Positions 3,336 through 22,837 of a DNA stretch of 24,000 bases are shown piece by piece (positions within the stretch are counted from its first letter, which is position 1; each line of letters begins with the position of its first letter). The DNA lies in assembly GCA_035601995.1 (NCBI GenBank), contig DATNNE010000047.1:1-24000 (forward strand), read 5' to 3'. The notes under the pieces were generated by a model that had not been told where the DNA came from, ran no database searches, and saw nothing but the letters and a program-made list of their open reading frames with translations. Origin of the DNA: Terriglobales bacterium (lineage in GTDB: Bacteria > Acidobacteriota > Terriglobia > Terriglobales > Acidobacteriaceae). The translations under genes and the position numbers were made by a program.

Positions 3336-3360
3336 GTCATCCTGAGCCACGCGAAGGATC
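3336..3360. repeat. Short hairpin repeat, family A (GTCATCC..GAAGGATC type), between convergent genes
   Basis: GTCATCCTGAGCCACGCGAAGGATC. Related copies in reverse orientation lie at 7452-7482 and 10881-10906. This one abuts the nuclease stop codon. Confidence 0.45.
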
Positions 3361-3893: not shown

Positions 3894-3996
3894 GGTGCAA
3901 ATGAGGGCGTCAGCGGTTAGGCCGCGCCGGATCTTTGTCTCCTGGAGATTCAGATTGTGTTCGGGATTTCGGGCTGGACGTGTCCGCAGAATCGCG

Positions 3997-4033
3997 GACA
4001 AACAAAAAGGCGCGGGGTCTGAAACCCGCGCCT
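3997..4033 (-). terminator. Canonical rho-independent terminator oriented on the minus strand, with no annotated gene to terminate
   Basis: The minus strand reads AGGCGCGGG-tttcagac-CCCGCGCCT followed by TTTTTGTTTGT. On the plus strand no T-run follows the stem. Confidence 0.6.
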
Positions 4034-4380: not shown

Positions 4381-4428
4381 AAATAGATAAACCATAGTGG
4401 GGAAGTGTACCCTTATAGGAACCCTATC

Positions 4429-5406
4429 GTGCCTACTAGCAATGGCAAGACGCTGCTTTTATTGAAGCCCCGGGGATTTTGTGCGGGGGTGGTGCGGGCG
4501 ATTGATATTGTCCGGATTGCCTTGGAGGCTTTTGGGCCGCCGATCTATGTCCGCAAGGAGATCGTGCACAACCGTTTTGTGGTCGAGGAACTGCAAGGCA
4601 AGGGCGCGATTTTCGTCGACAGCGTGGACGAGGTTCCTCCCGGCGAGCGGGTGATTTATAGCGCCCATGGAGTTTCGCCGGAGGTGCGGCAAGCCAGTCA
4701 GGCGCGCGATTTGCGGGTGATTGATGCGACCTGTCCGCTGGTCACGAAGGTTCACGTGGAGGCGGTCAAATTTGCCAAGGAAGGCTATTCGCTCATCCTG
4801 ATTGGGCATCACGACCACGACGAAGTGATTGGAACTTTGGGCGAGGCTCCGGTTGTGACGCAGGTGGTGGGTTCGCCGGAGCAGGTGAAGTCACTGACCG
4901 TGCCAAATCCCGACCGCGTGGCGTATCTCACCCAAACTACGCTGAGTCTTGACGAGACCAAGGACATTATTGCCGCACTGCGCGCGAGGTTCCCGAATAT
5001 CAAAGGGCCGGCGGCGCAGGACATTTGCTATGCGACGGAAAACCGGCAGGTCGCGGTGAAGCATGTGGCCTCGGATGCGGATCTGCTGTTGGTCGTGGGG
5101 TCGGATAACAGTTCGAATTCGAATCGACTGGTGGAAGTAGCGCGCAACCTGGGCACGAGTTCGCATCTAATAGACAGCTTCCAAAACATCAGGCCGGAGT
5201 GGCTGGAAGGCGTGAAGACCATTGCTTTGACGGCCGGAGCTTCGGCTCCGGAATGCCTGGTGGAAGAAGTGGTGAAGTTTTTGACCAGCAAGGGCTTCGG
5301 CAACGTGCAGGAAGTCGAAGTCATGCCCGAAAACGTGCGCTTTGGCTTGCCTCCCGAGATTGTGGAGGCGATTGCCAGCGCCCCCAGCGCGGTTAGTGCG
5401 GAGTAA
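4429..5406 (+). CDS. ispH: 4-hydroxy-3-methylbut-2-enyl diphosphate reductase (IspH/LytB)
   Basis: KPRGFCAGVVRAIDIV, VHNRFVVEEL, AHGVSPEV, DATCPLVTKVH and SSNSNRLVEVA are IspH hallmarks. GTG 4429 has AGGA 8 nt upstream. The track start GTG 4405 is possible, but its G-rich box is only 1 nt away. Confidence 0.9.
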   Translation: MPTSNGKTLLLLKPRGFCAGVVRAIDIVRIALEAFGPPIYVRKEIVHNRFVVEELQGKGAIFVDSVDEVPPGERVIYSAHGVSPEVRQASQARDLRVIDATCPLVTKVHVEAVKFAKEGYSLILIGHHDHDEVIGTLGEAPVVTQVVGSPEQVKSLTVPNPDRVAYLTQTTLSLDETKDIIAALRARFPNIKGPAAQDICYATENRQVAVKHVASDADLLLVVGSDNSSNSNRLVEVARNLGTSSHLIDSFQNIRPEWLEGVKTIALTAGASAPECLVEEVVKFLTSKGFGNVQEVEVMPENVRFGLPPEIVEAIASAPSAVSAE

Positions 5407-5418
5407 AGAATTAAACAT

Positions 5419-7410
5419 ATGGACGAAAACTCCCCCTCGTTTTCGGCGTCAAGTGCGCCGCTATTGCGCTTTGGAAAAATAGACGATCTCTCCAGCCGGG
5501 TTGCAGCCGCAGTCGATGGCGCGCGTAAGTTTTTATTCTCCCAGCAGCACGAAGAAGGCTACTGGTGCGGCGAGTTGGTCGCCGACACGACTTTAGAATC
5601 CGACTACATTCTGCTGCACACGCTGCTTGGCACGGGCGATCCGGTGCGCTTTCAGAAGTGTTGCAACTGGATCCTCCAACACCAAAACGAAGACGGCGGC
5701 TGGGGCATTTACGTAGACGCCCCGTCCAACGTCTCAGCCAGCGCAAAAAGTTATTTTGCGCTGAAGCTTAGCGGTTATAAACCCGATCACCCGGCTTTAG
5801 TGCGGGCGCGGGCGCGGATTCTTGAGATGGGCGGGGTGACTGAGGTCAATACTTTCACCAAGATTTATTTGTGTTTTCTGGGGCAGTTCGATTACGACGC
5901 GGTGCCCGCGATTCCGCCGGAGATCGTGCTGTTTCCCAAATGGTTCTGGTTCAATATTTACGAAATTTCTTCATGGTCGCGGGCGATTCTGGTTCCGCTT
6001 TCGATCTGCTATGCGAAAAAGCCGTTCAAGAAAATTCCTGACGACATGGGAGTGGAGGAATTATTTGTCGGCGGCCGCGACAAGTCGCGGATGCATCTGC
6101 ACTGGTCGAAGAAGCTGATCTCTTGGCGCAACTTCTTTTTGGTTTTCGACCGGCTCACGCATTGGTTCGAGATGGTACACGTTCGTCCGTTGCGCTGGCT
6201 GGCGCTCAAGCGGGCGGAGCAATGGATGCTGGAACGCTTCGAAATGAGCGATGGCTTGGGCGCGATCTATCCGTCGATGCTGAATGCCATTATCGCGCTG
6301 CGATGCTTGGGCTACTCGCTGGATGATCCGCAAGTGATTCGCGCCCTGGATGAATTCGAGAAGCTCGGAATCGAAGAAGGCGATACTTTCCGGATGCAGC
6401 CTTGCATGTCGCCGATTTGGGACACGGCGTATGCCATGTTTGCGCTGGGCGAAGCTGGCGTTCCGGCCAATGATCCACGGATGATCAAGTGCGCCGATTG
6501 GATTCTGCAGAAGCAGGTTCGCACCGTCGGCGATTGGAAAGTGAAGAACAAGGAAGGACAGCCGGGCGGCTGGTACTTCGAGTTCAACAACGAGTTTTAT
6601 CCGGATGTAGACGACAGCGCGATGGTTTGCCTCGGCTTGGGTCAAGTGGAACATCCCAACGGCCGCTATCAGCGCGAGTCTGTGCAGCGAGCCATCGACT
6701 GGATTTTCTCGATGCAATGCAAATCGGGCGGTTGGGCGTCGTTCGACAAGGACAACACGCGGATGGTGTTTGAGCACATTCCTTTCGCCGACCACAACGC
6801 CATGCTCGATCCACCGACGGTGGACATCACGGGGCGTATTCTTGAGATGCTCGCAGCATACGGATACGACAAGAACGATGCCCGCGTGAAGAAGGCGTTG
6901 AAGTTCATTCGCGAAGAGCAGGAGCCCGATGGATCGTGGTTCGGGCGTTGGGGCGTGAACTACATTTACGGCACGATGCAGGTGCTGCGCGGCCTGGAAG
7001 CGATGGGCATCGATCACCATGAGCCATATGTGCAGCAGGGTGCGGAGTGGCTGCGCATGGTGCAGAATGCGGACGGCGGTTGGGGCGAGACTTGTGGTTC
7101 GTACGACGATCCCAACACCCGCGGCGTGGGGCCAAGCACGCCTTCCCAGACCGCCTGGGGAGTGATGGGATTGCTGGCGGCGAACGATACCCGAAGTGAT
7201 TCGGTGGCGCGTGGGATTGCGTATTTGCTGCGCACGCAGAAAAAGAATGGCGGATGGGATGAGCCGCAGACTACGGGCACGGGTTTCCCGCGAGTGTTTT
7301 ATCTGACTTATACGTTGTACCGGCAGTATTTCCCGCTGATCGCGTTGACGACTTACGCCAAGGCGATGGTGGGGGCGGCGCAGGGAACGGGCGTGCGGCG
7401 GATTGGGTAG
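5419..7410 (+). CDS. shc: Squalene-hopene cyclase
   Basis: 663 aa. Catalytic DxDD motif present (YPDVDDSAMV). Multiple QW repeats (QNEDGGWG, QCKSGGWASF, QEPDGSWFGRWG, QNADGGWGE, QKKNGGWDE). Confidence 0.95.
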   Translation: MDENSPSFSASSAPLLRFGKIDDLSSRVAAAVDGARKFLFSQQHEEGYWCGELVADTTLESDYILLHTLLGTGDPVRFQKCCNWILQHQNEDGGWGIYVDAPSNVSASAKSYFALKLSGYKPDHPALVRARARILEMGGVTEVNTFTKIYLCFLGQFDYDAVPAIPPEIVLFPKWFWFNIYEISSWSRAILVPLSICYAKKPFKKIPDDMGVEELFVGGRDKSRMHLHWSKKLISWRNFFLVFDRLTHWFEMVHVRPLRWLALKRAEQWMLERFEMSDGLGAIYPSMLNAIIALRCLGYSLDDPQVIRALDEFEKLGIEEGDTFRMQPCMSPIWDTAYAMFALGEAGVPANDPRMIKCADWILQKQVRTVGDWKVKNKEGQPGGWYFEFNNEFYPDVDDSAMVCLGLGQVEHPNGRYQRESVQRAIDWIFSMQCKSGGWASFDKDNTRMVFEHIPFADHNAMLDPPTVDITGRILEMLAAYGYDKNDARVKKALKFIREEQEPDGSWFGRWGVNYIYGTMQVLRGLEAMGIDHHEPYVQQGAEWLRMVQNADGGWGETCGSYDDPNTRGVGPSTPSQTAWGVMGLLAANDTRSDSVARGIAYLLRTQKKNGGWDEPQTTGTGFPRVFYLTYTLYRQYFPLIALTTYAKAMVGAAQGTGVRRIG

Positions 7411-7451
7411 TTGGCGAGGATCGGTTTCCTGGTGCTGGCGGGCGAGAAGCA

Positions 7452-7482
7452 GATTCCTCGTTGCTTCGCTCCTCGGAATGAC
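7452..7482. repeat. Short hairpin repeat, family A, in the shc-hpnH spacer
   Basis: GATTCCTCGTTGCTTCGCTCCTCGGAATGAC. Its reverse complement (GTCATTCCGAGGAGCGAAGCAACGAGGAATC) matches the pattern of 3336-3360. Confidence 0.45.
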
Positions 7483-7520
7483 AAGATTGGTGGATTAGGG
7501 CGGTACGGGGGAGAAGACGA

Positions 7521-8642
7521 ATGGCGGTACCAATTTCTCAGATGTGGACTACGGCGACTTACGTCCTGGGGCAGAAGCTCAGGGGACGGAAGCAGTATCC
7601 GCTGGTGCTGATGCTGGAGCCGCTGTTCCGCTGTAATCTGGCGTGCGCGGGCTGCGGGAAAATTCAATATCCGGCGCATGTGTTGAAGTCGCAGCTTACG
7701 CCGGAAGAATGTTTCCGGGCGGTCGATGAATGTGGCGCGCCTACTGTGTCTATTCCTGGCGGCGAGCCGCTGCTGCATCCGCAGATCGGCGAGATCGTCG
7801 AAGGATTAGTGGCGCGCAAGAAATATATTTATCTGTGCACCAACGCGCTGCTACTCAAAGAAAAAATCCATCTATTCAAGCCGAGCAAGTATCTGACTTT
7901 TTCCGTTCACATGGATGGACAGCGGGAGCATCACGATTTTTCGGTTTGTCTCGAAGGCGGGTACGACAAAGCGATCGACGGGATCAAAGCCGCGCTGGAC
8001 GGCGGTTTTCGCGTGACCACGAATACGACATTGTTTGATGGAGCCGATCCCAAGAGCGTGCGCGCCTTCTTCGACGAAATGATGGAACTGGGTGTCGAGG
8101 GCATGATGCTGTCGCCGGGATACTCTTACGACAAAGCGCCGGATCAGCAACGCTTCCTTGGCCGGGCTCGCACGCGGCGATTGTTTCGCGCCATGCTTTC
8201 CAATCGCGACAAGAAGTGGCGCTTCAATCAGTCAGCGCTGTTTCTTGAATTCCTGATGGGGAAGCGCGAGTATGCGTGCACGCCTTGGGGTATGCCGACC
8301 TACAACGTCTTCGGGTGGCAGAAGCCCTGCTATTTGCTGCAGGACGGCTACGCGGATAGTTTTGCGGAATTGCTAGAGACGACCGCGTGGGAAAATTACG
8401 GGACCGAGTCGGGGAATCCTAAGTGCGCGAATTGCATGGTGCATAGCGGGTATGAAGCGTCCGCCGTGAACGATTTGTTTGGGTCGGTTAGTGGCATGTG
8501 GCAAGAAGTGAAGGCGCGCATGTTCGGCGGATATGAAGATGCTTCAGCTCTAAGGCTGCTGGATGACGCGGCTCAGCCGGCACATGCTGTCAATCCTCTG
8601 GTGCAGATCGGCGCTCCGACGGGTGAGGAGACACGGGTTTGA
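7521..8642 (+). CDS. hpnH: Adenosyl-hopene transferase, radical SAM (HpnH)
   Basis: CxxxCxxC cluster motif in FRCNLACAGCGK. The N-terminus (VPISQMWTTATYVLGQKLRGRKQYPLVLMLEPL) and length (373 aa) are typical of HpnH. It sits directly after shc. Confidence 0.9.
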   Translation: MAVPISQMWTTATYVLGQKLRGRKQYPLVLMLEPLFRCNLACAGCGKIQYPAHVLKSQLTPEECFRAVDECGAPTVSIPGGEPLLHPQIGEIVEGLVARKKYIYLCTNALLLKEKIHLFKPSKYLTFSVHMDGQREHHDFSVCLEGGYDKAIDGIKAALDGGFRVTTNTTLFDGADPKSVRAFFDEMMELGVEGMMLSPGYSYDKAPDQQRFLGRARTRRLFRAMLSNRDKKWRFNQSALFLEFLMGKREYACTPWGMPTYNVFGWQKPCYLLQDGYADSFAELLETTAWENYGTESGNPKCANCMVHSGYEASAVNDLFGSVSGMWQEVKARMFGGYEDASALRLLDDAAQPAHAVNPLVQIGAPTGEETRV

Positions 8643-9076
8643 GCGGGCGGGAAGCTGGGCACGGGCCTTCCGCTTCTCTGGACCCGAACTCGCTCGAGTT
8701 GGTTCCGGGAACGGTTCACGAAAAGCTCGAGGGATCGGTTCCGTCGCTGGCCAATGAGGAAGACCTGCGCAAGGCACTGGAGCAAGCATTCGATTATCGC
8801 GGCGATGTCTCGATCACGCGAAAAGATGGCGCAAAGATTGAAGGCTACATTTTCGATCGTAGTAGTGGAAGCGGGCTTTCCGACAGCTTCGTGCGGTTGC
8901 TGCCGAAAGATGGTTCTCCCAGAATAAAAATTTCCTACGCAGAAATTGCCGCGCTGGCATTTAGCGGGCGCGATATGGCTGCGGGCAAGAGTTGGGAAAA
9001 CTGGGTGCGGCATTATTGGGAAAAGAAAGCGGCGGGGGCGACCGATATTTCTCTGCAGCCCGAGAGGCTGGAGTAA
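8639..9076 (+). CDS. Hypothetical soluble protein (145 aa), translationally coupled to hpnH
   Basis: TTG 8639 overlaps the hpnH stop (gTTTGA). A strong SD, GAGGAG (8624-8629), lies 9 nt upstream. There is no ATG until residue 113, and no family was recognised. Core sequence: DYRGDVSITRKDGAKIEGYIFDR...VRLLPKDGSPRIKISYAEIAALAFSGRDMAAGKSWENWVRHYWEKK. Confidence 0.5.
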   Translation: MSGREAGHGPSASLDPNSLELVPGTVHEKLEGSVPSLANEEDLRKALEQAFDYRGDVSITRKDGAKIEGYIFDRSSGSGLSDSFVRLLPKDGSPRIKISYAEIAALAFSGRDMAAGKSWENWVRHYWEKKAAGATDISLQPERLE

Positions 9077-9135
9077 GAACAGTTGTCAGTTCTCGGTTCC
9101 CAGTTCTCAGGCCGAGTGCTCGCTGACAGCTCCTC

Positions 9136-10131
9136 ATGAAAGCTTTCGTCACCGGCGCAACTGGTTTTGTAGGCAGTCACGTGGCGCGTGTGTTGGCCGA
9201 GCAGGGGGCTGATCTGCGGCTGCTGCTTCGGTCCAGCAGTGATCCGAGAAATATTCAGGGTTTGAATGCGGATCGGGTTATCGGCGATCTGCGCGATCCG
9301 GCGTCGATTGAAAAGGCAATGTCAGGCTGCGACGTGGTGTTTCATGTTGCGGCTGACTACCGGCTTTGGGTTCGCGATCCGGAACAGATGTACCGTGCCA
9401 ATGTTGAAGGTACGCGGGCGATTCTCGAAGCCGCGCGGAAGAATCATGTGCGACGGGTGGTGTACACGTCGAGTGTTGCGACCATGGGATTCACTTCGAA
9501 TGGTCATCCGGCTGACGAGAATTCTCCAGTTTCGCTCGACGGCATGATCGGCCACTACAAACGTTCGAAGTTCATGGCCGAAGAGGTTGCGCTTGCGGCG
9601 GGCCGCGGCGGAATGGATGTAGTTGTGGTCAATCCCAGTACGCCGGTTGGCGAGCAGGACATTAAGCCCACCCCCACAGGGCGCATTGTCGTAGACTTCC
9701 TCAAAAAGAAGTTTCCTGCGTACGTGGATACGGGGCTGAATTTGGTGGATGTCAGGGAATGCGCGCGCGGCCACGTAGCTGCGCTGGAGAAAGGGAGAAG
9801 CGGAGAGCGCTATATTCTGGGCGGAGAGAATCTGACGCTCAAGCAGATTCTGGACAAGCTGGGCGCGATTACCGGGTTGCCATCGCCCAAGGTAAAAGTT
9901 CCATACGTGTTCGCACTGGCGACTGGCGTCGTGGACGAAATTGTGACCGGGCGTATTCTTGGCCGAGAACCGCGGGCGACGATCGACGCTGTGCGCATGG
10001 GACGGAAAAAGATGTTCGTATCCTGCGCGAAGGCTGGACGTGAACTGGGATGGAAGATTGTTCCGGTGGGCGACGCGTTGCGGCGGGCGGCGGACTGGTT
10101 TGTGGCGAATGGATATGCGCCGCGAGGCTGA
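9136..10131 (+). CDS. hpnA: Hopanoid-associated NAD-dependent sugar epimerase/dehydratase-family protein (HpnA)
   Basis: Rossmann motif MKAFVTGATGFVGSHV, catalytic YKRSK, and the string FHVAADYRLWVRDPEQMYRANVEGTR typical of HpnA. Location between hpnH and hpnG supports the call. Confidence 0.85.
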   Translation: MKAFVTGATGFVGSHVARVLAEQGADLRLLLRSSSDPRNIQGLNADRVIGDLRDPASIEKAMSGCDVVFHVAADYRLWVRDPEQMYRANVEGTRAILEAARKNHVRRVVYTSSVATMGFTSNGHPADENSPVSLDGMIGHYKRSKFMAEEVALAAGRGGMDVVVVNPSTPVGEQDIKPTPTGRIVVDFLKKKFPAYVDTGLNLVDVRECARGHVAALEKGRSGERYILGGENLTLKQILDKLGAITGLPSPKVKVPYVFALATGVVDEIVTGRILGREPRATIDAVRMGRKKMFVSCAKAGRELGWKIVPVGDALRRAADWFVANGYAPRG

Positions 10132-10133
10132 AG

Positions 10134-10880
10134 ATGCCAAACTCGACCAAAGTCGCGATGGTAGCCGCCTTGGAGCGCGAGGTAAGCCTGCTAATCAAGC
10201 GCTGGAACAGAGTTGAGCGGGAGCACGAAGGTCGGCGTTTCAAGTTTTTCGAGGGCGGCCAGACTGTGCTGGTTTGTGATGGCATCGGAGCGGAGGCTGC
10301 TCGCCGAGCAACCGAGGCCGTGCTCGCGCTGTATCAGCCCGAACTTGTGCTGTCGGCGGGCTTCGCGGGAGCGCTCGATCCGGCGTTGAAGGTGGGAGAC
10401 ATCTTTACACCGAGCAGCGTGGTCGACGCGCGGGACGGCAGCCGCGTCGAAATGGCCACAGGGCATGGAGTGCTGGTCAGCGCCGCCGCGGTTGCGGGCG
10501 TCGAAGAGAAAAAGAAGCTGGCCGAGTCCTACGGGGCGCAGGCAGTCGATATGGAAGCTGCTGCCGTGGCGCGAGGCGCGCAGGCGCGGGGTGTGCGATT
10601 CATGGCGGTGAAGGCAATCTCGGATGAGAGCGACTTTGAGATGCCGACGCTGGATCGCTTCGTCGATGAGAAGGGTCAATTTAAGACTAGAAGGTTTGCT
10701 ATTTCTGCGACGCTGCGTCCGTGGCTTTGGCCGCGGCTAATTCAACTGGCCAGAAATGTTGCGAAAGCCTCACGGGCACTTTGCGCCGAGCTGGAGCGGT
10801 ACATCCAGGAGCCAAAGAAATCAGAGGTTTCGGGACCGGAGTTGCATCCAATAACTAAGGTAGTGGCTAAGGCGAGGTAG
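10134..10880 (+). CDS. hpnG: Hopanoid-associated phosphorylase/nucleosidase (adenosylhopane nucleosidase, HpnG)
   Basis: PNP/UDP-1 (MTA-nucleosidase-like) motifs are present: AVDMEAAAVARGA, FMAVKAISDESD. ATG 10134 lies 2 nt after the hpnA stop, with GAGG 6 nt upstream. The track start at 10050 would overlap hpnA by 82 nt. Confidence 0.85.
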   Translation: MPNSTKVAMVAALEREVSLLIKRWNRVEREHEGRRFKFFEGGQTVLVCDGIGAEAARRATEAVLALYQPELVLSAGFAGALDPALKVGDIFTPSSVVDARDGSRVEMATGHGVLVSAAAVAGVEEKKKLAESYGAQAVDMEAAAVARGAQARGVRFMAVKAISDESDFEMPTLDRFVDEKGQFKTRRFAISATLRPWLWPRLIQLARNVAKASRALCAELERYIQEPKKSEVSGPELHPITKVVAKAR

Positions 10881-10906
10881 GGATCCCTCACTTCGTGAGG
10901 GATGAC
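10881..10906 (+). terminator. Family-A hairpin immediately after the hpnG stop (attenuator or processing site rather than a full terminator)
   Basis: GGATCCCTCAC-ttc-GTGAGGGATGAC has a 9-bp perfect stem (10883-10903) and no U-tract. The next gene starts at 10915. Confidence 0.4.
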
Positions 10907-10914
10907 AGGGCAAG

Positions 10915-12039
10915 ATGGCAATCGCTGGACAATTTACGATCGAAGAAACGAAGCGGGCGATTCCGACCACCATGCGAGCAGCGGTTTATCGCGGTGTGAA
11001 CGATGTTCGTGTGGAAACCGTTCCGGTGCCGAAGATCGGGGCGGGAGAGCTGCTGGTCCGGGTGCACACTTGCGGAATCTGCGGAACCGATCTCAAGAAA
11101 ATCTCCAGCGGTTCACATTCGGCGCCACGCATCTTCGGTCACGAAACCTCGGGCGTGGTAGCGGCTGTAGGGAGTGAGGTCAAGCAGTTTAAGCCGGGCG
11201 ATCGAGTGGTGGTGTTCCATCACATTCCGTGCGGCGAATGCTACTACTGCCGCCACAAGACTTTTGCTCAGTGCGAGACCTACAAGAAAGTCGGGTGTAC
11301 TGCGGGCTTCGAACCTTCAGGTGGCGGATTCGCCGAGTATGTTCGGGTGATGGATTGGATCGTTAATCACGGCACGGTTCGCATCCCGGATGGAGTCTCG
11401 TTTGAGCAAGCGTGCTTCGTCGAACCCGTCAATACCTGCATGAAGGGGATTGAGACGCTGCAACTTGTGCCCGGCGAGAGTGTTCTAGTAATTGGACAAG
11501 GGCCGATCGGCATCATGTTGAGTGCGTTGGCCAAACGTTCTGGGGCTGCAGTAGTAACTTCCGATTTGTATCCCCAGAGGCTTACAATATCTAAAACGTA
11601 CGGTTTAACGAATGTGATTGATGCTTCCCACGTCGACCCGGTGAAAACGGTGCGGGAGCAGACAGAGGGCCGGGGCGCCGACGCAGCCATTGTTGCGGTC
11701 GGTGGGAACGGCCTGATTCGGACTGCCATGGATGCGGTGCGTCCGGGGGGCAGGGTCTTGCTGTTCGCGCAGACGGTTCGCGGGGAGGCTACGATTGATC
11801 CGGCCGCGATCTGCGTGGACGAGAAGAGATTGTTGGGTTCGTATAGCGCGTCGGTTGAACTGCAGGAAGATTCGGTGCGGTTTGTGATGAGCCGCGAGAT
11901 GAACTTGGAAGGTTTGATCAGTCACCGCTTCTCTTTATCGGACGGTGTGGAAGCCCTCAAACTGGCGGCGAGTCCGCAACCGGATTCGATGAAGATTGTG
12001 ATTCAAGCGGGCAGTTCGTGGGAAGGAAATAGAAATTGA
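10915..12039 (+). CDS. Zn-dependent medium-chain dehydrogenase/reductase, polyol/threonine-dehydrogenase-like (374 aa)
   Basis: Catalytic-Zn context CGICGTDLKK and GHETSGVV. Structural-Zn lobe CGECYYCRHKTFAQC (C-x2-C-x2-C-x7-C). Dinucleotide fold VIGQGPIG. Alternative start at M20 (MRAAVYRG, nt 10972). Confidence 0.85.
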   Translation: MAIAGQFTIEETKRAIPTTMRAAVYRGVNDVRVETVPVPKIGAGELLVRVHTCGICGTDLKKISSGSHSAPRIFGHETSGVVAAVGSEVKQFKPGDRVVVFHHIPCGECYYCRHKTFAQCETYKKVGCTAGFEPSGGGFAEYVRVMDWIVNHGTVRIPDGVSFEQACFVEPVNTCMKGIETLQLVPGESVLVIGQGPIGIMLSALAKRSGAAVVTSDLYPQRLTISKTYGLTNVIDASHVDPVKTVREQTEGRGADAAIVAVGGNGLIRTAMDAVRPGGRVLLFAQTVRGEATIDPAAICVDEKRLLGSYSASVELQEDSVRFVMSREMNLEGLISHRFSLSDGVEALKLAASPQPDSMKIVIQAGSSWEGNRN

Positions 12040-12047
12040 ACGGAAAG

Positions 12048-13085
12048 ATGACGGCAGCGGTCCTCTATGGCAAAGAGGACGTAAAAATCGAGCGAGTTCC
12101 CATTCCCCGTGTGGGTGATGGGGAAGTGTTGGTGAAGGTTCAAGTCGCTCTGACTTGTGGGACAGACCTTAAGGTGTATCAGCGCGGGTACCACGCGCGC
12201 ATGATTGTTCCTCCGGCGTTGTTCGGGCATGAGTTGGCGGGAGTGATCGAGGAGGTTGGGCCGGGCGTACGCGGATTTAAGAAGGGAATGCGGGTGGTAG
12301 CGTTGAACTCTGCGCCCTGCCAGATGTGTTTTTACTGCTCCAAGCATCAGGCCAACCTTTGCGAAGACCTGTTATTCAACAACGGGGCTTATGCGGAATA
12401 CATTCGCATTCCGCGGCGAATTGTCGAGATCAACATGCTGGCGATCCCGCCGGATGTGAGCTATGAAGAAGCGGCGATGGTTGAGCCTCTGGCCTGCGTG
12501 CTGCGCGGCCTGCACGAGACTGGCGTGGAGATTGGCGACACGGTTACCGTGGTCGGAGGCGGTCCGATTGGCTTAATGTTCGTGCAGGTGGCCAAGGCGG
12601 TTGGCTGCAATGTGATTTCTGTGGTGAAGCGCGATGCTCAAGTGCAAGCCGCGAAACATATGGGCGCGCATGACGTAGTGCAAATCACTAAGGTCAAGGA
12701 TCCGGTGGAAGCCGTGCGGACACTCTCCCCTGAGAAGCGCGGCAGTGATGTGGTGATCGAGGCGGTGGGACGTCCGGACGCCTGGGAGATGGCGATCGAT
12801 ATGGTGCGCAAGGGCGGGACGGTGAACTTTTTTGGTGGCTGTGCGAGCGGCACCAAAGTGCAGCTTGACACCAACCGGCTGCATTATTCGGAGGTCACTC
12901 TGAAGGCGACTTTCCATCACACGCCAGAGACCGTGCGCAGAGCCTTCGCCTTGATCGCCGAGAAGAAGATTCGGTCTACGGATTACATTACTGGCGAAGC
13001 GCCACTATCCCGGCTGCAGCAAGTTTTCCATCACATGCTGAACCGCAACGGCGATATCAAGACCGCCATTATTCCCGGGCACTGA
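12048..13085 (+). CDS. Second Zn-dependent medium-chain dehydrogenase/reductase, polyol-dehydrogenase-like (345 aa)
   Basis: MTAAVLYGKEDVKIERVPIP is a typical MDR N-terminus. Also present: LTCGTDLKV, GHELAGVI, CQMCFYCSKHQANLC and VVGGGPIG. The track start TTG 12036 overlaps the upstream stop (TTGA), so either start implies coupling. Confidence 0.85.
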   Translation: MTAAVLYGKEDVKIERVPIPRVGDGEVLVKVQVALTCGTDLKVYQRGYHARMIVPPALFGHELAGVIEEVGPGVRGFKKGMRVVALNSAPCQMCFYCSKHQANLCEDLLFNNGAYAEYIRIPRRIVEINMLAIPPDVSYEEAAMVEPLACVLRGLHETGVEIGDTVTVVGGGPIGLMFVQVAKAVGCNVISVVKRDAQVQAAKHMGAHDVVQITKVKDPVEAVRTLSPEKRGSDVVIEAVGRPDAWEMAIDMVRKGGTVNFFGGCASGTKVQLDTNRLHYSEVTLKATFHHTPETVRRAFALIAEKKIRSTDYITGEAPLSRLQQVFHHMLNRNGDIKTAIIPGH

Positions 13086-13112: not shown

Positions 13113-14102
13113 ATGCCGGGGCCTGCATTGACGAAACTGATCATGTCATCGATTGCCAGCGACTCCCGGACTGCGGCTATTTCCTCAAGGCAGGAGGGGT
13201 GGGGCAGTCTTCCGCTCGAGTACGCCATTCCCGAGAAAGCCCCCACCCAAGCCGAGGCAGAGGAGTACTGCCGTCGTCTGGCCCGTTCGCACTACGAGAA
13301 TTTCTCGGTTGCCAGCTGGTTTCTTCCTGAAAAAGTGCGGCAGGATTTTTTCAACGTCTACGCTTATTGCCGCATCTCGGATGATCTAGGTGACGAAGTC
13401 GGCGATGCGAATGCTTCTTTGCGATTACTGGATCAGTGGGAGGCTGAGCTCGATGCGTGCTACGCAGGGAGTCCGCGGCATCCTGTGTTCGTAGCCTTGG
13501 CGGAAACTGTGCGCAAGTGCGGGATCCCGAAACAAACGTTTGTCGATTTGCTCACTGCGTTTCGCCAGGATCAAAGAGTCTCACGCTATTCCACGTTCGA
13601 GGATGTTCTCAGCTATTGCCGGTATTCTGCGAATCCCGTCGGACATCTCGTGCTGTATGTGTGCGGCTACCGCGACGCGGAGCGGCAGGCGCTTTCCGAT
13701 TTCACTTGCACTGCTTTGCAGTTGGCGAATTTCTGGCAGGACGTCAGCCCGGACTATGCCAATGGGCGAATCTATCTTCCCCTCGAAGACCTGCGCCGTT
13801 TTCGAGTCAGTGAAGATGACTTCGCGGCGCAACGCAATACATCCGCTTTTTGCGACATGATGCGATTCGAAGTGGAGCGCGCCCGCGATTGGTTCTGCTG
13901 GGGCCTGCCGCTGATCGAGCAGGTGGATCGTGACTTGGCCGTCGACATTGAATTGTTCAGCCGGGGTGGTCAGGAGATTCTGAACGCCATCGAAGCCCAG
14001 GGATACAACGTGCTGGGCAGGCGTCCGGCAATTTCAAAATCACGCAAACTGGCGCTGGTAGCGGGTGTGGCCTGGGGGAAATTGTGGGGAAGGCGGACAT
14101 GA
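13113..14102 (+). CDS. hpnC: Hydroxysqualene synthase (squalene synthase HpnC)
   Basis: Squalene/phytoene-synthase fold with Asp-rich motifs YCRISDDLGDE and FWQDVSPDYANGRIYLPLED. It is followed by the paralogue hpnD and by hpnE. Confidence 0.85.
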   Translation: MPGPALTKLIMSSIASDSRTAAISSRQEGWGSLPLEYAIPEKAPTQAEAEEYCRRLARSHYENFSVASWFLPEKVRQDFFNVYAYCRISDDLGDEVGDANASLRLLDQWEAELDACYAGSPRHPVFVALAETVRKCGIPKQTFVDLLTAFRQDQRVSRYSTFEDVLSYCRYSANPVGHLVLYVCGYRDAERQALSDFTCTALQLANFWQDVSPDYANGRIYLPLEDLRRFRVSEDDFAAQRNTSAFCDMMRFEVERARDWFCWGLPLIEQVDRDLAVDIELFSRGGQEILNAIEAQGYNVLGRRPAISKSRKLALVAGVAWGKLWGRRT

Positions 14103-15058
14103 GTACGGCGGTGCAGCCAGCTCCAACACCGTTCGTGCCGACCGAATCGCAACTGGCGGTTGCGTACTCGGTCTGCCGCAGCATTACGCGGTCGACAGCC
14201 AAGAACTTCTATTACGCGTTTCTGGTGCTACCGCGCGCCAAGCGTCAGGCTTTGTGCGCTGTGTACGCTTTCATGCGGCGTTGTGACGACATCGCCGACG
14301 ATGAATCCATGTCGCAATACGACCGGCGGCAGAAGCTCACCGCCTGGCTGGACGCCTTTCACCACGCCCAGTCTGGCCAGCCCACTGACGAACCCGTACT
14401 GTTGGCTCTGACTGACGCGCAGCGCCGCTACAACATTCGGGTTGGATTGCTCGATCAATTGGCCTACGGCACCGCGATGGATGTCGAGGGAGGTCCGGGC
14501 GCGAACGACATGCCCGCAGCCGAACCGCCCGTGCCTCTTGCGCTGCGCGCCCATTACCGAACCTTTGACGACCTCTATCAATATTGTTACCGCGTGGCGT
14601 CGGTCGTCGGATTGGTTTGCATTCATGTGTTTGGTTATCGCGATCCGGCGGCGGAGCCGCTGGCTGAACGCCTGGGAATCGCGTTTCAACTCACTAACAT
14701 TATTCGCGATGTGAAAGAAGACGCCAGCATGAGCCGCGTTTATTTGCCGGAAGAGGATCTGGACAAGTTCGGAATTTCAATTTCCGCGCTGGAGTCGGTC
14801 TCGGATCCTGCATTACTTCGCCCGCTTCTGGCGATGGAGGCCGATCGCGCTCGCGAGTATTACCAGGCTGGAGACGAACTCATTCCTCTGGTCGAAGAGG
14901 ACAGCCAGCCCGCGCTCTGGGTGCTCATGACCATTTACCAGCGTCTGCTCGACAAGATTGCGCTGCGTGAATACGATGTGTTCAGTGAGAAGGTCAGCCT
15001 TACCGTGCGCGAGAAGCTCGGCATTCTGGCCAAGGGCTTCCTGAAACGCTTGTCCTGA
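14099..15058 (+). CDS. hpnD: Presqualene diphosphate synthase (HpnD)
   Basis: Motifs AFMRRCDDIADDE and NIIRDVKEDASMSRVYLPEED. ATG 14099 overlaps the hpnC stop (ATGA), with GGAAGG upstream. The track start GTG 14084 is less likely. Confidence 0.85.
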   Translation: MSTAVQPAPTPFVPTESQLAVAYSVCRSITRSTAKNFYYAFLVLPRAKRQALCAVYAFMRRCDDIADDESMSQYDRRQKLTAWLDAFHHAQSGQPTDEPVLLALTDAQRRYNIRVGLLDQLAYGTAMDVEGGPGANDMPAAEPPVPLALRAHYRTFDDLYQYCYRVASVVGLVCIHVFGYRDPAAEPLAERLGIAFQLTNIIRDVKEDASMSRVYLPEEDLDKFGISISALESVSDPALLRPLLAMEADRAREYYQAGDELIPLVEEDSQPALWVLMTIYQRLLDKIALREYDVFSEKVSLTVREKLGILAKGFLKRLS

Positions 15059-16461
15059 TGAACGAGCGTCCTGTACAAAATTCCCGAGTAGCTATCGTCG
15101 GAGGGGGATTGGCGGGACTTGCCGCCGGTTGCGCCCTTGGCAGCAGCGGCTTCCGCGTGACCCTGTTCGAGCGGCGCCCTTACCTGGGCGGACGCGCTTC
15201 TTCGTATCAGCATCCCGGCACCGGCGAAGTCGTGGACAACTGCCAGCACGTTCTGCTCGGCTGCTGCACCAATCTGATCAAGTTCTACGAACGGCTTGGC
15301 GTTGAGAACAAGATCCGCTGGTATGACCGGCTGACTTTCCTCGAACCAGGTGGACGCGCCTCGGTGATCGTGCAATCGAAACTGCCTGCGCCGCTTCACA
15401 ACGCACCGGCTTTTCTGCGCGCCGACTGTTTGGACCTGTCCGACAAACTTTCGATTGGCATGGCGATGGCAGCTCTGGCCCCTGCGACGCCGCGAGATGA
15501 CGGCGAAGCCTTCCTGACATGGCTGCGCCGCCACGGACAGACAAAGCAAGCCATCGAACGCTTCTGGAAGCCGGTGCTGGTAAGTGCCTTGAATGAAGAA
15601 TTAGATCGCATGTCCGTGCCCTACGCGGCTCAGGTGGTGCGAGAATCATTTTTGAAATCGGCCGCGGCGGGACGGATGGGCGTGCCGACTGTCCCTTTAA
15701 CCGAGCTTTACAGCGTGGCTGGAGACTACATCAACGCGCGTGGAGGCGAAGTCCGATTGCGTTGCAGCGTGGAATCTTTTCTATCCGACCAGCATTGCGT
15801 GAAGCTGCTGGTGTCGGGTGAGGAAACGAGCTTTGACTTCGTTGTTGTCGCCGTCCCGTTTGATGTTTTATCCCGCATACTGCCGCAGACGTCAGTTGCG
15901 GAGCCTTTGCGGCGAGTGCTGACGCGATTCGAGACCTCACCCATCACCGGCATTCATCTCTGGTTCGATCGCCAGATCACTGATCTTGATCATGCTGTCT
16001 TATTGGATCGAACCATTCAATGGATGTTTCACAAATCGAAACTACTCGGGCGCAACGAGAGCGGAAACGGCAGCTACGTCGAACTGGTCGTGAGTTCATC
16101 CAAGACTCTGGTCGAAAAGTCGCGAGCGGAGATCATCGAGCTAGCGATGGCCGAGCTGCGCGAGTTTTTTCCCGGCGCACGAGACGCGAACCTGGTGAAA
16201 TCGACAGTGATCAAGGAAGTCCACGCCACTTATTCGCCGCGGCCCGGAGTGGACGTATACCGTCCCGGGTCAGAAACGGTCTGGCCGAAGATCTTTCTAG
16301 CCGGAGACTGGACCGCGACGGGATGGCCCGCGACGATGGAGGGCGCAGTCCGCAGTGGATACATAGCCGCGGAATGCGTGGCCCGAGCTGCGGGAATAAA
16401 AGATTCGTCGTTTCTTGTGCCAGATCTGCCCGCGACCGGATTCATGCGGCTGTTCGGATGA
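15058..16461 (+). CDS. hpnE: Hydroxysqualene dehydroxylase, FAD-dependent amine-oxidase family (HpnE)
   Basis: N-terminal FAD fold VAIVGGGLAGLAAGCAL..FERRPYLGGR. The ATG overlaps the hpnD stop (TGATG). C-terminal FLAGDWTATGWPATMEGAVRSG is typical of the family. Confidence 0.85.
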   Translation: MNERPVQNSRVAIVGGGLAGLAAGCALGSSGFRVTLFERRPYLGGRASSYQHPGTGEVVDNCQHVLLGCCTNLIKFYERLGVENKIRWYDRLTFLEPGGRASVIVQSKLPAPLHNAPAFLRADCLDLSDKLSIGMAMAALAPATPRDDGEAFLTWLRRHGQTKQAIERFWKPVLVSALNEELDRMSVPYAAQVVRESFLKSAAAGRMGVPTVPLTELYSVAGDYINARGGEVRLRCSVESFLSDQHCVKLLVSGEETSFDFVVVAVPFDVLSRILPQTSVAEPLRRVLTRFETSPITGIHLWFDRQITDLDHAVLLDRTIQWMFHKSKLLGRNESGNGSYVELVVSSSKTLVEKSRAEIIELAMAELREFFPGARDANLVKSTVIKEVHATYSPRPGVDVYRPGSETVWPKIFLAGDWTATGWPATMEGAVRSGYIAAECVARAAGIKDSSFLVPDLPATGFMRLFG

Positions 16462-16977: not shown

Positions 16978-18000
16978 TCAGCGTCGGGTCATTTCTGGCG
17001 GAACTCCCACCCTATCGCCGAAGACCTCCCGCGCTTGATCGTAGGCTCCAAGCGGCGCGATCACTCTCCCAATGAATTCTGAGATGTGCTTCCCCTGGAA
17101 TTCATCGATTACTTGAGCCTCGTCAATTCTGCGGAAGCTCCCCTTATCGTCCACAATTTCCCGCGACCAGAATCTGTGATCGAGACCCAGCAGAAACTCC
17201 TTTTCGACCGAAGTTGCCATTCGCGTGTTTGTCTTGCCCTCAACTGTTGCCCCTGGAATAATTCTCCACTCCCGCTGTCGATAGTAGGAAAGGAGCTTGT
17301 CGTTGAATTGATCGTCCGTCGGATAGAACAGGTTTTGAGCTGCGTAGATAGCGCCTCTCATCAGATCAAATGGGGCTGTCTTATAGTTTAGATAATCCAA
17401 TATGCCGCGGACGATGCTCGCCTTTACCTCGAAGCGTTGAACAATCGCCTTATCCTCATTGTTGTTCTGGAGATGCAGTACGTAATTTGGATCGACGTGA
17501 GTGGCCTCTGGGTTCGTCCTGCGAGCAAGCTCTAGGGCGGACCGCGGATCGGAAAGTTTGGACAACTGGTCCAGCAGATCCAACGTATGTCGAGCATTCT
17601 CGAACATCCACACGATGACCGGACCAACTGAGCTGAGTAGCCGATCGCCCTTCACCATTTGCGGCACGTATATGACGGGGAGTATTCCGAACTGCCGCAA
17701 CACCTGGATTGGGAACTCCAACGAGAACGGACCAAATGATTTCGCATGCCCAGACAATTCGGATTGCGAGAGCTCTGTGAAGCAGATTCTCGTCTGTCTA
17801 TTGCGGATTACCTTTGTCGTGCTGTCTACTTGGGGAATCCCCCATTCCACAACCTCTGGAGCGAGGACCATGCCGATATTCTTAACTCCCTTTAGAATTT
17901 CTAGCCCTTTTGTGATGACAAGCTCTGGCGTCTCCGACGGCAGCTTTCGCGGAAAGCTATGGTAGAAGCTTCGTTCAAATCCGTCGATCGCATTTTCCAT
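16978..18000 (-). CDS. AbiGi-like (abortive-infection family, Pfam PF10899-like) protein, 340 aa
   Basis: Pattern-level match to AbiGi as remembered: FYHSF.., LEILKGVKNIGMVL, RICFTELSQSELSGHAKSFGPFSLEF..GILPVIYVP (compare ..CFCDIPLS....H...YG.YGI.F......G.NPV.Y) and the later YYRQREWRIIPG (E.EWR motif). AAGGAG lies directly upstream of the ATG. The gene is visibly more A/T-rich than its neighbours. Confidence 0.55.
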   Translation of the reverse strand: MENAIDGFERSFYHSFPRKLPSETPELVITKGLEILKGVKNIGMVLAPEVVEWGIPQVDSTTKVIRNRQTRICFTELSQSELSGHAKSFGPFSLEFPIQVLRQFGILPVIYVPQMVKGDRLLSSVGPVIVWMFENARHTLDLLDQLSKLSDPRSALELARRTNPEATHVDPNYVLHLQNNNEDKAIVQRFEVKASIVRGILDYLNYKTAPFDLMRGAIYAAQNLFYPTDDQFNDKLLSYYRQREWRIIPGATVEGKTNTRMATSVEKEFLLGLDHRFWSREIVDDKGSFRRIDEAQVIDEFQGKHISEFIGRVIAPLGAYDQAREVFGDRVGVPPEMTRR

Positions 18001-18198
18001 CTCCTTAGCGCCCTGCCAGTCTCTCCCGTCTCAGTCAATGCTAACCCCAAAAAGCACAAAAATGCGACTCTCAAAGAAAGATGTCATTTGTGGTGGGCTC
18101 CCGTTATCTCGCTCCGGCCGAGTGGCGGGCAAACCCGAGAGATCTGCCTGGAATTAGTGCCATCGGGGTTCGGATAGGGTTTCGAAGGACGCGCCGAC

Positions 18199-18579
18199 TT
18201 ACGCGGCCAGCAGAACCACGCCGCCTGCCACCAGCAGTGCGGCCATCCAGCGGCGGTGATCGACTCGTTCGTGCAGAAACAGCTTGGCCGCAATCGCGTT
18301 GGTTATAAAAGTAAGAGAGGCCGAGGCCGGTGCGATCAGGCTGACATCGCCCCAGGATAGTCCGAACAACAAACTGTAAAAGGCCGTAGTCATGGCGAGA
18401 ACACCGAGCAGGAAGTTTGGATTCCGCAGGACTCGTCCCAACACCGTCCAGAGACCGCTCTGCCGCCAGAGCTCGCCCACGTCTCCCACCTGCTTCATGG
18501 CGCGGGAGAGCAGAACGTCGCCGGTGGTCGAAGCCAGCACGATGGCGGCAATCGAACTCCATGCGTAGGCTTGCTTCAT
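18199..18579 (-). CDS. Half-size (4-TM) EamA/DMT-superfamily membrane protein B (126 aa)
   Basis: MKQAYAWSSIAAIVLASTTGDVLLSRAMKQVG... has four hydrophobic helices and ends ..HERVDHRRWMAALLVAGGVVLLAA, the EamA C-terminal pattern. ATG 18579 has GAAGGA 6 nt upstream. The track start TTG 18600 lies inside the tandem repeat. Confidence 0.75.
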   Translation of the reverse strand: MKQAYAWSSIAAIVLASTTGDVLLSRAMKQVGDVGELWRQSGLWTVLGRVLRNPNFLLGVLAMTTAFYSLLFGLSWGDVSLIAPASASLTFITNAIAAKLFLHERVDHRRWMAALLVAGGVVLLAA

Positions 18580-18589
18580 TGCTTGTCCT

Positions 18590-18631
18590 TCATGGTTCAA
18601 GCCTCATGGTTCAAGCCTCATGGTTCGGGCC
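18590..18631 (-). repeat. 14-bp tandem repeat x3 at the junction of the two EamA genes
   Basis: Plus strand: tcatggttcaagcc tcatggttcaagcc tcatggttcgggcc. Each minus-strand unit (GAACCATGAGGCTT) carries an overlapping ATGA start/stop and a GAGG. Confidence 0.95.
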
Positions 18632-19058
18632 TCGCTGAAGCGGGTTCGTAGGCTGCTTCCTGGGCTTTGGCTTTTGCTGGATGGTGGGTCAGTGCTGGAC
18701 CCTGCGTCACGAATCCCACGCCGGCCGAGATGAGAAGAACTCCAATCCAGCGCGACGTTGTCACGGTCTCGTGCAGGAAAAACTTCGCAATCAGGGTAAG
18801 CAAAACGTAACCCAGTGAGGTCGCGGGAAGAACGTAGGTGAGGTCAGCCCAGGAAAGGGCGATCATGTAGGACGCGAAGAATCCCAGCAAGAGCAAAATG
18901 CCCAGAGCAACCGAGGGATTCAGCACGGCCAGGATTAAATCAGAAAAATGGCTCAGGGAAATGCTGCCCACTTGCTTCATGCCATGGGAGAGCAGCGAAT
19001 CGCCGATGGACGCACAGAGCGTCACGCCAGCGAGCACCAGATATTTTCGAAAGGTCAC
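18618..19058 (-). CDS. Half-size (4-TM) EamA/DMT-superfamily membrane protein A (146 aa)
   Basis: GTG start. The sequence (M)TFRKYLVLAGVTLCASIGDSLLSHGMKQVG... is a paralogue of protein B (shared ..GD.LLS..MKQVG.. and ..FLHE.V...RW....L...G...). It has a hydrophilic Ala/Pro-rich C-terminal tail. Confidence 0.75.
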   Translation of the reverse strand: MTFRKYLVLAGVTLCASIGDSLLSHGMKQVGSISLSHFSDLILAVLNPSVALGILLLLGFFASYMIALSWADLTYVLPATSLGYVLLTLIAKFFLHETVTTSRWIGVLLISAGVGFVTQGPALTHHPAKAKAQEAAYEPASARPEP

Positions 19059-19186
19059 ACTTTTGTTACCCGGCAGGTGGGAACAAGATTCCGATTTGGG
19101 GACTCGGATGCAGTAATGGCCGTAACCTCAGGGGCTAAAGCCCTTTTTCAAGAAACATTTTTCCGACGGGCTGGAGCCGCGCCCTC

Positions 19187-19216
19187 TCAAAGCTGACCAC
19201 ATTCAAAGCTAACCAC
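19187..19216. repeat. Imperfect direct repeat in the hpnJ-EamA spacer
   Basis: TCAAAGCTGACCAC (19187-19200) and TCAAAGCTAACCAC (19203-19216) differ by one mismatch and are 2 nt apart. A short GGGC-taaa-GCCC hairpin with T5 lies nearby (about 19132-19148). Confidence 0.6.
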
Positions 19217-19244
19217 CTCATTAGCGAGTTCCTGACAAAGCCCA

Positions 19245-22390: not shown

Positions 22391-22837
22391 GGCTTCATCC
22401 TCAATAGAAGTTGCAAGAACTCGAAAACGTGATTGTAAATGAGCGCGAAGCCCGGACCACGCGCGCAAGCGCGCCAATATCCTTAATTCGCGCCTTTCAG
22501 ATATTACGATTTCGGAACAATCGGCCAGCGCGAGTACAACAGAGCTAGAAAACGAGTAAACTTTGTTTCATGTCACTGTTGAAGAAAGTCGCGATTGTTA
22601 TGGTGGCGTGGGTCGTTTGTGTGCTGGTCTACCTCGAGTTTTTTGCTAAAGCCCGATGATTCCAAGGGTTTGGCCTGCCTGCGCAGTCTCCTGAGAAGCA
22701 AGAGCGGAGCTCGTTCGAGAATACGAGTGGAGAGGTGGGCCACCACCACGGCTTGCAGGAATCTTTCTGCACACTTGTGTCTGAATGCCCGAGAAATTAG
22801 CTTCTAGTTCATCCGCTGCAACTGAGGGAAGGCACAC

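Follow-up and report, generated by a model that had tools for sequence, protein, structure and literature searches.

Introduction

Two genes encoding zinc-dependent dehydrogenases, ug1 and ug2, have been reported from subdivision 1 to 3 Acidobacteria by Sinninghe Damsté et al. (2017, Front Microbiol 8:968; PMC5462960), who considered their function "not established". In that report ug1 is a Zn-dependent alcohol dehydrogenase (ADH) of ~370 aa that follows hpnA-hpnG, and ug2 is a Zn-binding ADH of ~350 aa that precedes hpnC-hpnD-hpnE. Here we analyse the same two genes in the hopanoid operon of a Terriglobales bacterium (Acidobacteriota), on a stretch of 24,000 nucleotides (contig DATNNE010000047.1, positions 1 to 24,000) that we call the window. 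Since both products are medium-chain dehydrogenases/reductases (MDR), we refer to ug1 as MDR1, to ug2 as MDR2, and to the two together as the pair.

Bacteriohopanepolyols (BHPs) are major geochemical biomarkers, and the enzyme for their commonest form, bacteriohopanetetrol (BHT), is missing, so that a dedicated candidate would be valuable. According to a 2025 paper in Geobiology, which cites Bodlenner 2015 for the cell-free reduction of ribosylhopane, the enzyme for the ribosylhopane-to-BHT step is not established (PMC12583986). A 2026 review terms the step non-enzymatic (PMC13459092), and Sinninghe Damsté et al. proposed HpnA for it (PMC5462960). No function has been assigned to ug1 or ug2 in the literature that we searched, and the accessible part of a 2025 preprint on hopanoid phylogenomics does not mention them.

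The 2017 report put ug1 and ug2 in two separate clusters (C and A), whereas we find them to be paralogues that belong to one module; it noted neither an occurrence of that module beyond hopanoid producers and Acidobacteriota nor the differing cofactor signatures of its members. The paralogue module, its spread beyond both groups, the NAD/NADP split and hpnCDE as the tightest partner are new here. Our preferred reading, to which we give a probability of roughly 0.4, is that the pair would be a co-inherited, translationally coupled NAD/NADP redox pair serving as a lineage-restricted accessory of the isoprenoid-to-squalene (HpnCDE) branch.

Results

Conservation of gene order

An alignment of diverse MDR1 sequences was used to scan 185,579 species genomes, of which at least 597 gave a confirmed relative. 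The best 80 species-representative loci, all with at least 74% identity, form our Terriglobales set, and 80 metagenome loci at ~60% identity form that of a more distant peat-soil clade. Statements on the co-occurrence of the pair with hpn genes are based on 10 kb to either side, on the names of metagenome-assembled genomes (MAGs) and on the gene tables of one paper.

MDR2 directly follows MDR1 in 142 of 145 loci (77/77 in Terriglobales, 55/56 in the peat clade and 10/12 elsewhere). In turn, hpnC directly follows MDR2 wherever the locus leaves room for it in Terriglobales (74 loci) and in the peat clade (51 loci), and at 6 of the 12 others. Adjacency and co-orientation with hpnC-hpnD-hpnE is found in 125/125 Terriglobia loci with room, and also in L083, L087, L088 and L170. 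A directly upstream hpnG is seen in 54/78 Terriglobales loci, 55/65 peat-clade loci and ~2/12 others. At 11 Terriglobales loci (L026, L028, L029, L034, L037, L039, L041, L043, L049, L051 and L075) the ispH-shc-hpnA-hpnG block lies on the opposite strand or hpnG is missing, and the pair is still joined to hpnCDE.

The peat clade keeps the entire order ispH-shc-hpnH-ug3-hpnA-hpnG-MDR1-MDR2-hpnCDE...hpnJ-tolC. Loci outside these clades, whose pairs are orthologous (50-62% identity for both members), hold parts of it. An Acidobacteria MAG (L170, L171) has ispH-shc-hpnH-hpnA-MDR1-MDR2-hpnCDE with hpnG missing from the cluster, L172 has ispH-hpnA-MDR1-MDR2-hpnD, and the hpnG-MDR1-MDR2-hpnCDE of L088 is frameshifted. 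Two further loci, one in a Chthonomonadales MAG (L083) and one on a metagenome contig (L087), hold MDR1-MDR2-hpnC-hpnD-hpnE as a unit of its own, without any further hpn gene. In four lineages (L082, L084, L086 and L173) the 10 kb to either side of the pair are free of hpn and squalene genes, and a cyanobacterium (L081) and a separate lineage (L085) each have a single MDR1-like gene that likewise lies away from hpn genes. The pair is co-localised with shc, hpnH, hpnG or hpnA in Terriglobales, the peat clade and the Acidobacteria MAG, and not in six other lineages. A search of plasmids and chromids returned only generic MDRs at 32-35% identity, the best on Burkholderia chromids at ~32%. The uncharacterised 236-aa proteins downstream of the pair in L173 and L083 are unrelated to each other.

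Because the pair is kept with hpnCDE when clusters are rearranged and stands alone elsewhere, the stable unit is the pair itself: a two-gene module conserved across lineages, with hpnCDE, and not hpnG, as its commonest partner.

Occurrence outside hopanoid producers

The clade formed by L082 and L086 is Vicinamibacteria, an assignment that rests on the naming of a MAG and on a neighbouring gene. Its MDR1 orthologues fall in a 90%-identity cluster that includes NCBI HVD76487.1 from a Vicinamibacteria MAG, and the only named close match (77% identity) of the thymidine phosphorylase (DeoA) adjoining the pair is in Vicinamibacteria. Both loci are 70% G+C, and Vicinamibacteria are high in G+C. In L082 we also observed a 286-aa amine-oxidase-like open reading frame (ORF; 11870-12730, minus strand) convergent to the pair, with 25-31% identity to the C-terminal half of HpnE; it is absent from the related L086.

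In Vicinamibacteria (subdivision 6), Luteitalea and ten environmental genomes possess hpnC, hpnD and hpnE and no shc or other BHP genes, and two cultured strains make no hopanoids (PMC5462960). From the MAG naming together with this literature, orthologues of the pair are not restricted to shc-positive organisms. The occurrence in Vicinamibacteria matches the synteny, in that the pair goes with the squalene branch and not with the side-chain genes.

Protein family and active sites

MDR1 and MDR2 are intact paralogues (34% identity, E=1e-54), and MDR1 is 100% identical to a protein recorded under the name of a Terriglobales MAG. Both match ADH_N (PF08240) and ADH_zinc_N (PF00107) above cut-offs, and the GxGxxG motif lies at residues 194-199 of MDR1 and 174-179 of MDR2. 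The catalytic zinc site comprises Cys56/His76/Glu77/Glu170 in MDR1 and Cys41/His65/Glu66/Glu150 in MDR2, and the structural site Cys106/109/112/120 and Cys95/98/101/109, respectively. Residue conservation was counted over 172 MDR1 and 151 MDR2 orthologues, and at the zinc sites it is complete or nearly so. By fold and by zinc ligands both proteins are members of the Zn-dependent MDR superfamily, in which they belong to the polyol/threonine-dehydrogenase branch.

No NCBIfam equivalog cut-off is reached by either protein. Below cut-off, the strongest models are those for IolM, threonine dehydrogenase and galactitol-1-phosphate dehydrogenase; they score 150-180 bits where 380-550 would be required. 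For IolM (scyllo-inosose 3-dehydrogenase, NF041097; cut-off 450), which is the best match of MDR1, the scores are 179.6 bits for MDR1 and 153.5 for MDR2; for L-threonine 3-dehydrogenase they are 174.6 and 173.3 with TIGR00692 (cut-off 458), and 168.4 and 167.9 with NF003808 (cut-off 380). The nearest solved structures are generic as well (E ~1e-40), namely Thermus ADH, threonine dehydrogenases, sorbitol dehydrogenase and the NADP-dependent ketose reductase of whitefly. The His of the C-G-[ST]-D-[LV]-H motif, a mark of threonine dehydrogenase (TDH) and sorbitol (L-iditol) dehydrogenase, is absent from both proteins. In its place, Lys61 of MDR1 and Lys46 of MDR2 align with the motif His of TDH 2DFV, TADH 4CPD and ketose reductase 1E3J, and this Lys is kept across orthologues (Arg once, in MDR1). 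The residues conserved near the active site are Lys61-Lys62 and His102/His103 in MDR1, and Lys46 in MDR2.

MDR1 bears a subfamily insertion, YKKVGCTAGFEPSGGG, and the subfamily motifs D-x-K-K, PRIFGHE, TAGF-x-P-x-GGG and GSYSS. Its subfamily is sharply bounded: when 1.84 billion cluster representatives were searched, no more than about a dozen full-length clusters exceeded ~260 bits, and generic MDRs formed a plateau near 200 bits. Over the 80 Terriglobales species, no protein of the cluster is more conserved than MDR2 and the ispH product (median identity 87% for both, compared with 83 for shc, 74 for hpnC, 67 for hpnD and 55 for hpnG).

Outside the window, the 602-aa protein P0150 has an N-terminal nucleotidyltransferase of the sugar-phosphate type fused to an MDR1-like domain, which is 38% identical and has the subfamily motifs; this fusion is a hint of sugar or polyol phosphates as substrates among the relatives of MDR1. 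A second apparent fusion, the 586-aa "MDR1-MDR2" protein P0271 (L089, 10001-11761), was discarded as an artefact and is no Rosetta-stone fusion. It comes from a frameshift-ridden long-read assembly in which shc is in three pieces and hpnCDE is also fragmented.

It could be hypothesized from these features that the pair is unrelated to isoprenoids, and that a self-contained module of soluble polyol, sugar(-phosphate) or amino-alcohol metabolism became fixed beside hpnCDE in an ancestor of the acidobacteria and has since been inherited along with it, or passed on en bloc. The best sub-threshold matches of hidden Markov models (HMMs), to inosose, threonine and galactitol-phosphate dehydrogenases, are consistent with such a module, as are the polar and basic residues conserved at the active site and the fusion in the distant relative P0150. 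The four lineages that have the pair by itself, surrounded by housekeeping or unrelated genes, and the single MDR1-like genes of L081 and L085, point in the same direction. However, the adjacency of hpnC in every Terriglobia locus with room and in Chthonomonadales is hard to explain without selection. Moreover, the spacers are short, no terminator was called in that between MDR2 and hpnC, and MDR2 is as highly conserved as any protein of the operon. We consider this explanation somewhat unlikely.

Predicted cofactor preference

Asp217 stands at the end of beta-strand 2 in 172 of 172 MDR1 orthologues. The site is never acidic in MDR2, where 151 of 151 orthologues have Val or Gly at residue 197, followed by Lys or Arg at 198. 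The MDR2 of the window has Val197-Lys198-Arg199 where MDR1 has Asp, and its "VVK" is aligned to "TAR" in ketose reductase 1E3J, which is NADP-dependent. The same split, Asp versus Val/Gly-Lys/Arg, is repeated in six distant pairs. In Rossmann folds an acidic residue at this place is established to select NAD, and by this rule MDR1 should prefer NAD and MDR2 should prefer NADP.

These signatures bear on the proposal made in the preliminary description of this DNA, in which the two genes were put forward as candidates for the missing ribosylhopane reductase. In its most plausible form, MDR2 would reduce ribosylhopane (the open-chain aldehyde) to BHT in Terriglobia, and MDR1 would perform a second, NAD-linked oxidoreduction of the side chain. 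The NADP-type signature of MDR2 suits a reductase, MDRs of the polyol-dehydrogenase type do carry out aldose/ketose-polyol chemistry, and the cell-free reduction of ribosylhopane is reportedly NADPH-dependent. More than 100 acidobacterial loci have hpnG or hpnA immediately before the pair and apparently co-transcribed with it. The premise of the preliminary description that no gene had been assigned to the step also remains valid (PMC12583986, PMC13459092), and HpnA, the other candidate, is reported to be dispensable for BHT in Burkholderia (PMC5462960).

The distribution of the pair nevertheless argues against this role. In rearranged clusters it goes with hpnCDE and not with hpnG, other lineages carry it without hpnG, hpnH or shc nearby, and it occurs in Vicinamibacteria, which are reported to lack shc and hopanoids (PMC5462960). 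Around the hpn clusters of Alphaproteobacteria, a survey of 2025 detected no additional candidate (PMC12583986), and the best match on a Burkholderia chromid is the generic one at ~32% identity. In addition, two enzymes are needless for a single reduction, and both proteins are of a soluble type and show no feature suggestive of lipid binding or of a membrane. The original proposal is partly supported, by the chemistry, by the NADP-type MDR2 and by the position in Terriglobia, across which the pair is indeed conserved within hopanoid clusters. The argument that placement directly after hpnG fits does not hold, given the 11 Terriglobales loci with an inverted block or missing hpnG, the units of L083 and L087 without hpnG, the pair of the Acidobacteria MAG that follows hpnA, and the four lineages without hpn genes within 10 kb. 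Orthologues in hopanoid-free genomes, which the preliminary description had named as telling against its proposal, were in part encountered, in Vicinamibacteria as judged by MAG name and by PMC5462960. Taken together, a ribosylhopane reductase is an unlikely identity for MDR2. A more novel variant has the pair recruited in Terriglobia from an older module, serving another polyol-type substrate in hopanoid-free relatives such as Vicinamibacteria, with MDR2 becoming the reductase and MDR1 oxidising a neighbouring carbinol of the side chain; we regard it as just as improbable.

An NAD-type and an NADP-type enzyme, as predicted here from the signatures, are also the classical arrangement for stereoinversion. 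The pair might therefore make some other modification of extended hopanoids, either by oxidation and subsequent reduction at C-34, which would invert the stereochemistry and give BHT isomers, or by a redox step in which it would join HpnJ in making a head group of the cyclitol or amino-sugar type. BHT 34R and 34S isomers do exist, with no enzyme assigned (PMC12583986), and hpnJ and small EamA-like transporter genes are conserved beside the cluster. On the other hand, the distribution poses the same problems as for a ribosylhopane reductase, and no lipid data tie Acidobacteria to unusual BHT isomers. Producers of BHT-cyclitol ether, e.g. Burkholderia, use HpnI, HpnJ and HpnK and have no such pair (PMC13459092; our chromid search). 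This possibility seems to us very unlikely.

The surrounding operon

From ispH to hpnE the window holds one long array on the plus strand (Table 1), and no notable promoter-like or terminator-like site was called between hpnA and hpnE. The preliminary description proved accurate on the layout of the pair: two paralogous Zn-dependent MDR genes, with the catalytic Cys/His context and the four-Cys structural zinc lobe retained, lie between an hpnG-like gene and hpnC. There are 34 nt between the hpnG-like stop and the MDR1 ATG, the MDR1 stop (12037-12039) overlaps a TTG at 12036 in the sequence TTGA, and 27 nt separate the MDR2 stop from the hpnC ATG. The start of MDR2 is ambiguous, since an alternative ATG at 12048 is kept in every orthologue and an overlapping GTG or TTG is found at the equivalent position in ~46 loci; coupling to MDR1 is tight with either start. 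The assignment to an aldehyde/polyol-redox subfamily is likewise upheld, as far as the polyol/threonine-dehydrogenase branch and short of any equivalog.

The upstream gene had been named hpnG; it belongs to the wider family and falls below the cut-off of the specific model, TIGR03468. It scores comparably against models for methylthioadenosine/S-adenosylhomocysteine nucleosidase and futalosine hydrolase, and it evolves fastest in the cluster (35-75% identity among Terriglobales, median 55%, and ~36% in the peat clade). Given the 82 nt that its ORF shares with hpnA, translation probably begins downstream of 10050. The preceding hpnA is the operon's other NAD(P) oxidoreductase without an assigned role. 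The hairpin in the spacer before MDR1 is statistically unremarkable (z-score only -1.6 in 56 nt). It has no T-run and is thus not an intrinsic terminator, and terminator prediction called none there; it could be an element of mRNA processing or stability, or a translational element.

Table 1. Features of the window.
Feature	Coordinates	Strand	Basis or remark
PD-(D/E)XK endonuclease ORF	3360-4001	-	
ispH	4405-5406	+	above NCBIfam cut-off
shc	5419-7410	+	above NCBIfam cut-off
hpnH	7521-8642	+	above NCBIfam cut-off
small ORF, 145 aa (published as ug3)	8639-9076	+	without Pfam or NCBIfam match; overlaps hpnH stop
hpnA, hopanoid-associated short-chain dehydrogenase/reductase (SDR) "sugar epimerase"	9136-10131	+	TIGR03466, 500 bits (cut-off 368)
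hpnG-like gene, purine-nucleoside phosphorylase/nucleosidase family	10050-10880	+	PF01048; TIGR03468, 110 bits (cut-off 187)
9-bp perfect hairpin, ATCCCTCAC-TTC-GTGAGGGAT	10883-10903	+	in the 34-nt spacer between hpnG-like gene and MDR1
MDR1, 374-aa Zn-dependent medium-chain dehydrogenase, predicted NAD-type	10915-12039	+	Pfam, residues
MDR2, 349-aa Zn-dependent medium-chain dehydrogenase, predicted NADP-type	12036-13085	+	Pfam, residues
hpnC (hydroxysqualene synthase)	13113-14102	+	TIGR03464, 341 bits (cut-off 250)
hpnD (presqualene diphosphate synthase)	14084-15058	+	best match TIGR03465, 243.2 bits, below cut-off 278.6; named from best match and position
hpnE (hydroxysqualene dehydroxylase)	15058-16461	+	TIGR03467, 500 bits (cut-off 283)
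340-aa ORF	16978-18000	-	weak AbiGi-like match
hpnJ, two small EamA-like half-transporter genes (ug4, ug5), TolC-family gene	18104-20723, 21068-22477	-	hpnJ 783 bits, above cut-off

Several further observations concern the neighbouring genes. The ug3 ORF is kept after hpnH wherever hpnH sits in the cluster (51-92% identity); hpnH and ug3 are found in only 11 of the 80 Terriglobales species loci and are present in the peat clade. Downstream of hpnE, hpnJ, ug4/ug5 and the TolC-family gene form a convergent block that is conserved in both Terriglobia clades, and in L170 and L172 a full-length two-domain EamA gene lies upstream of ispH. The EamA-like genes of the hpnJ block may encode a flippase for a lipid or head group, akin to ArnE/ArnF. 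The operon is flanked by the 340-aa ORF on one side and the PD-(D/E)XK endonuclease ORF on the other. The former, the one of the two that was looked for there, has no match in any related locus, which suggests a strain-specific insertion of defence or mobile DNA. Third-position GC skew is +0.14 to +0.27 for ispH through MDR2 (4405-13085) and ~0 for hpnC, hpnD and hpnE (13113-16461); the step at the MDR2/hpnC border was rejected as a signal, because it is not conserved in other species and is a quirk of this genome.

Discussion

Our results favor an accessory role of the pair in the squalene branch. MDR1 would perform an NAD-linked oxidation and MDR2 an NADPH-linked reduction, in sequence, on a hydroxyl/carbonyl group, and the net outcome would be a stereoinversion or an interconversion of the aldose-polyol-ketose type. 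The substrate is probably small and polar, because Lys61/Lys62 and His102/His103 of MDR1 and Lys46 of MDR2 are conserved near the active site. Within the branch the pair might supply a precursor, supply a cofactor or handle an alcohol intermediate, and it would not be dedicated to the hopanoid side chain. Links to 5-deoxyribose or 1-deoxy-D-xylulose 5-phosphate salvage, or to amino-alcohol head groups, were also considered and were dropped, as nothing in the data supports them.

However, this reading should be taken with caution, as several points weigh against it. The HpnCDE enzymes of Zymomonas and Rhodopseudomonas suffice alone for squalene formation in E. coli, so that the pair would at best be a lineage-specific accessory; that HpnCDE needs no dehydrogenase is a weakness of this reading. 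Chloracidobacterium reportedly has hpnCDE and shc without ug2 (PMC5462960). In loci of the Vicinamibacteria type the pair does not adjoin hpnCDE, and the link there is one of co-occurrence in the literature, not of synteny. The pair comes directly after hpnG or hpnA in more than 100 loci, and some lineages have it embedded among side-chain genes. The pair-alone loci L084 and L173, like L085 and L087, have no taxon assignment, and the cofactor preferences, the order of the two reactions and the polarity of the substrate are all predictions from sequence.

As a candidate for the missing step of BHT formation, the pair is less convincing than one would expect from its position, and attention is redirected to its travelling with the three-enzyme squalene pathway. 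That a dehydrogenase pair of predicted NAD and NADP type accompanies this pathway in Acidobacteriota, and in one or more phyla besides, is so far unexplained. The reading makes definite predictions: MDR1 is expected to work with NAD and MDR2 with NADPH, around an active site rich in Lys.

Comparison with known enzymes

Among characterised enzymes, the NADP(H)-dependent ketose reductase 1E3J and the sorbitol and xylitol dehydrogenases share with the pair the fold and the Cys/His/Glu catalytic zinc. Identity is ~30-35%, and MDR1 and MDR2 differ from them in keeping the four-Cys structural zinc lobe. 1E3J is the best solved relative of MDR2 (E=3e-40), and in MDR2 and 1E3J alike beta-strand 2 ends in a non-acidic residue followed by a basic one. 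In the "D-V/L-H" motif these enzymes, TDH and TADH have His, whereas MDR1 and MDR2 have Lys. L-threonine 3-dehydrogenase (TIGR00692/NF003808) is the best or second-best NCBIfam match for both proteins and shares their zinc lobe and architecture, but the pair are not members of it, scoring 173-175 bits against 458 and having Lys in place of the motif His.

HpnA (TIGR03466) resembles the pair in being an NAD(P)-dependent oxidoreductase of the same operon, often encoded directly upstream, and in being the literature's candidate for the missing step. It differs in belonging to the extended SDR superfamily and in its much wider spread among hopanoid producers. A last parallel, offered as a lead only, is the synthesis of cytidine diphosphate ribitol by TarI/TarJ, in which TarJ is an NADPH-dependent MDR acting as ribulose-5-phosphate reductase. 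That system pairs a cytidylyltransferase with a reductase and can be likened to the P0150 fusion, whereas the window is without a nucleotidyltransferase.

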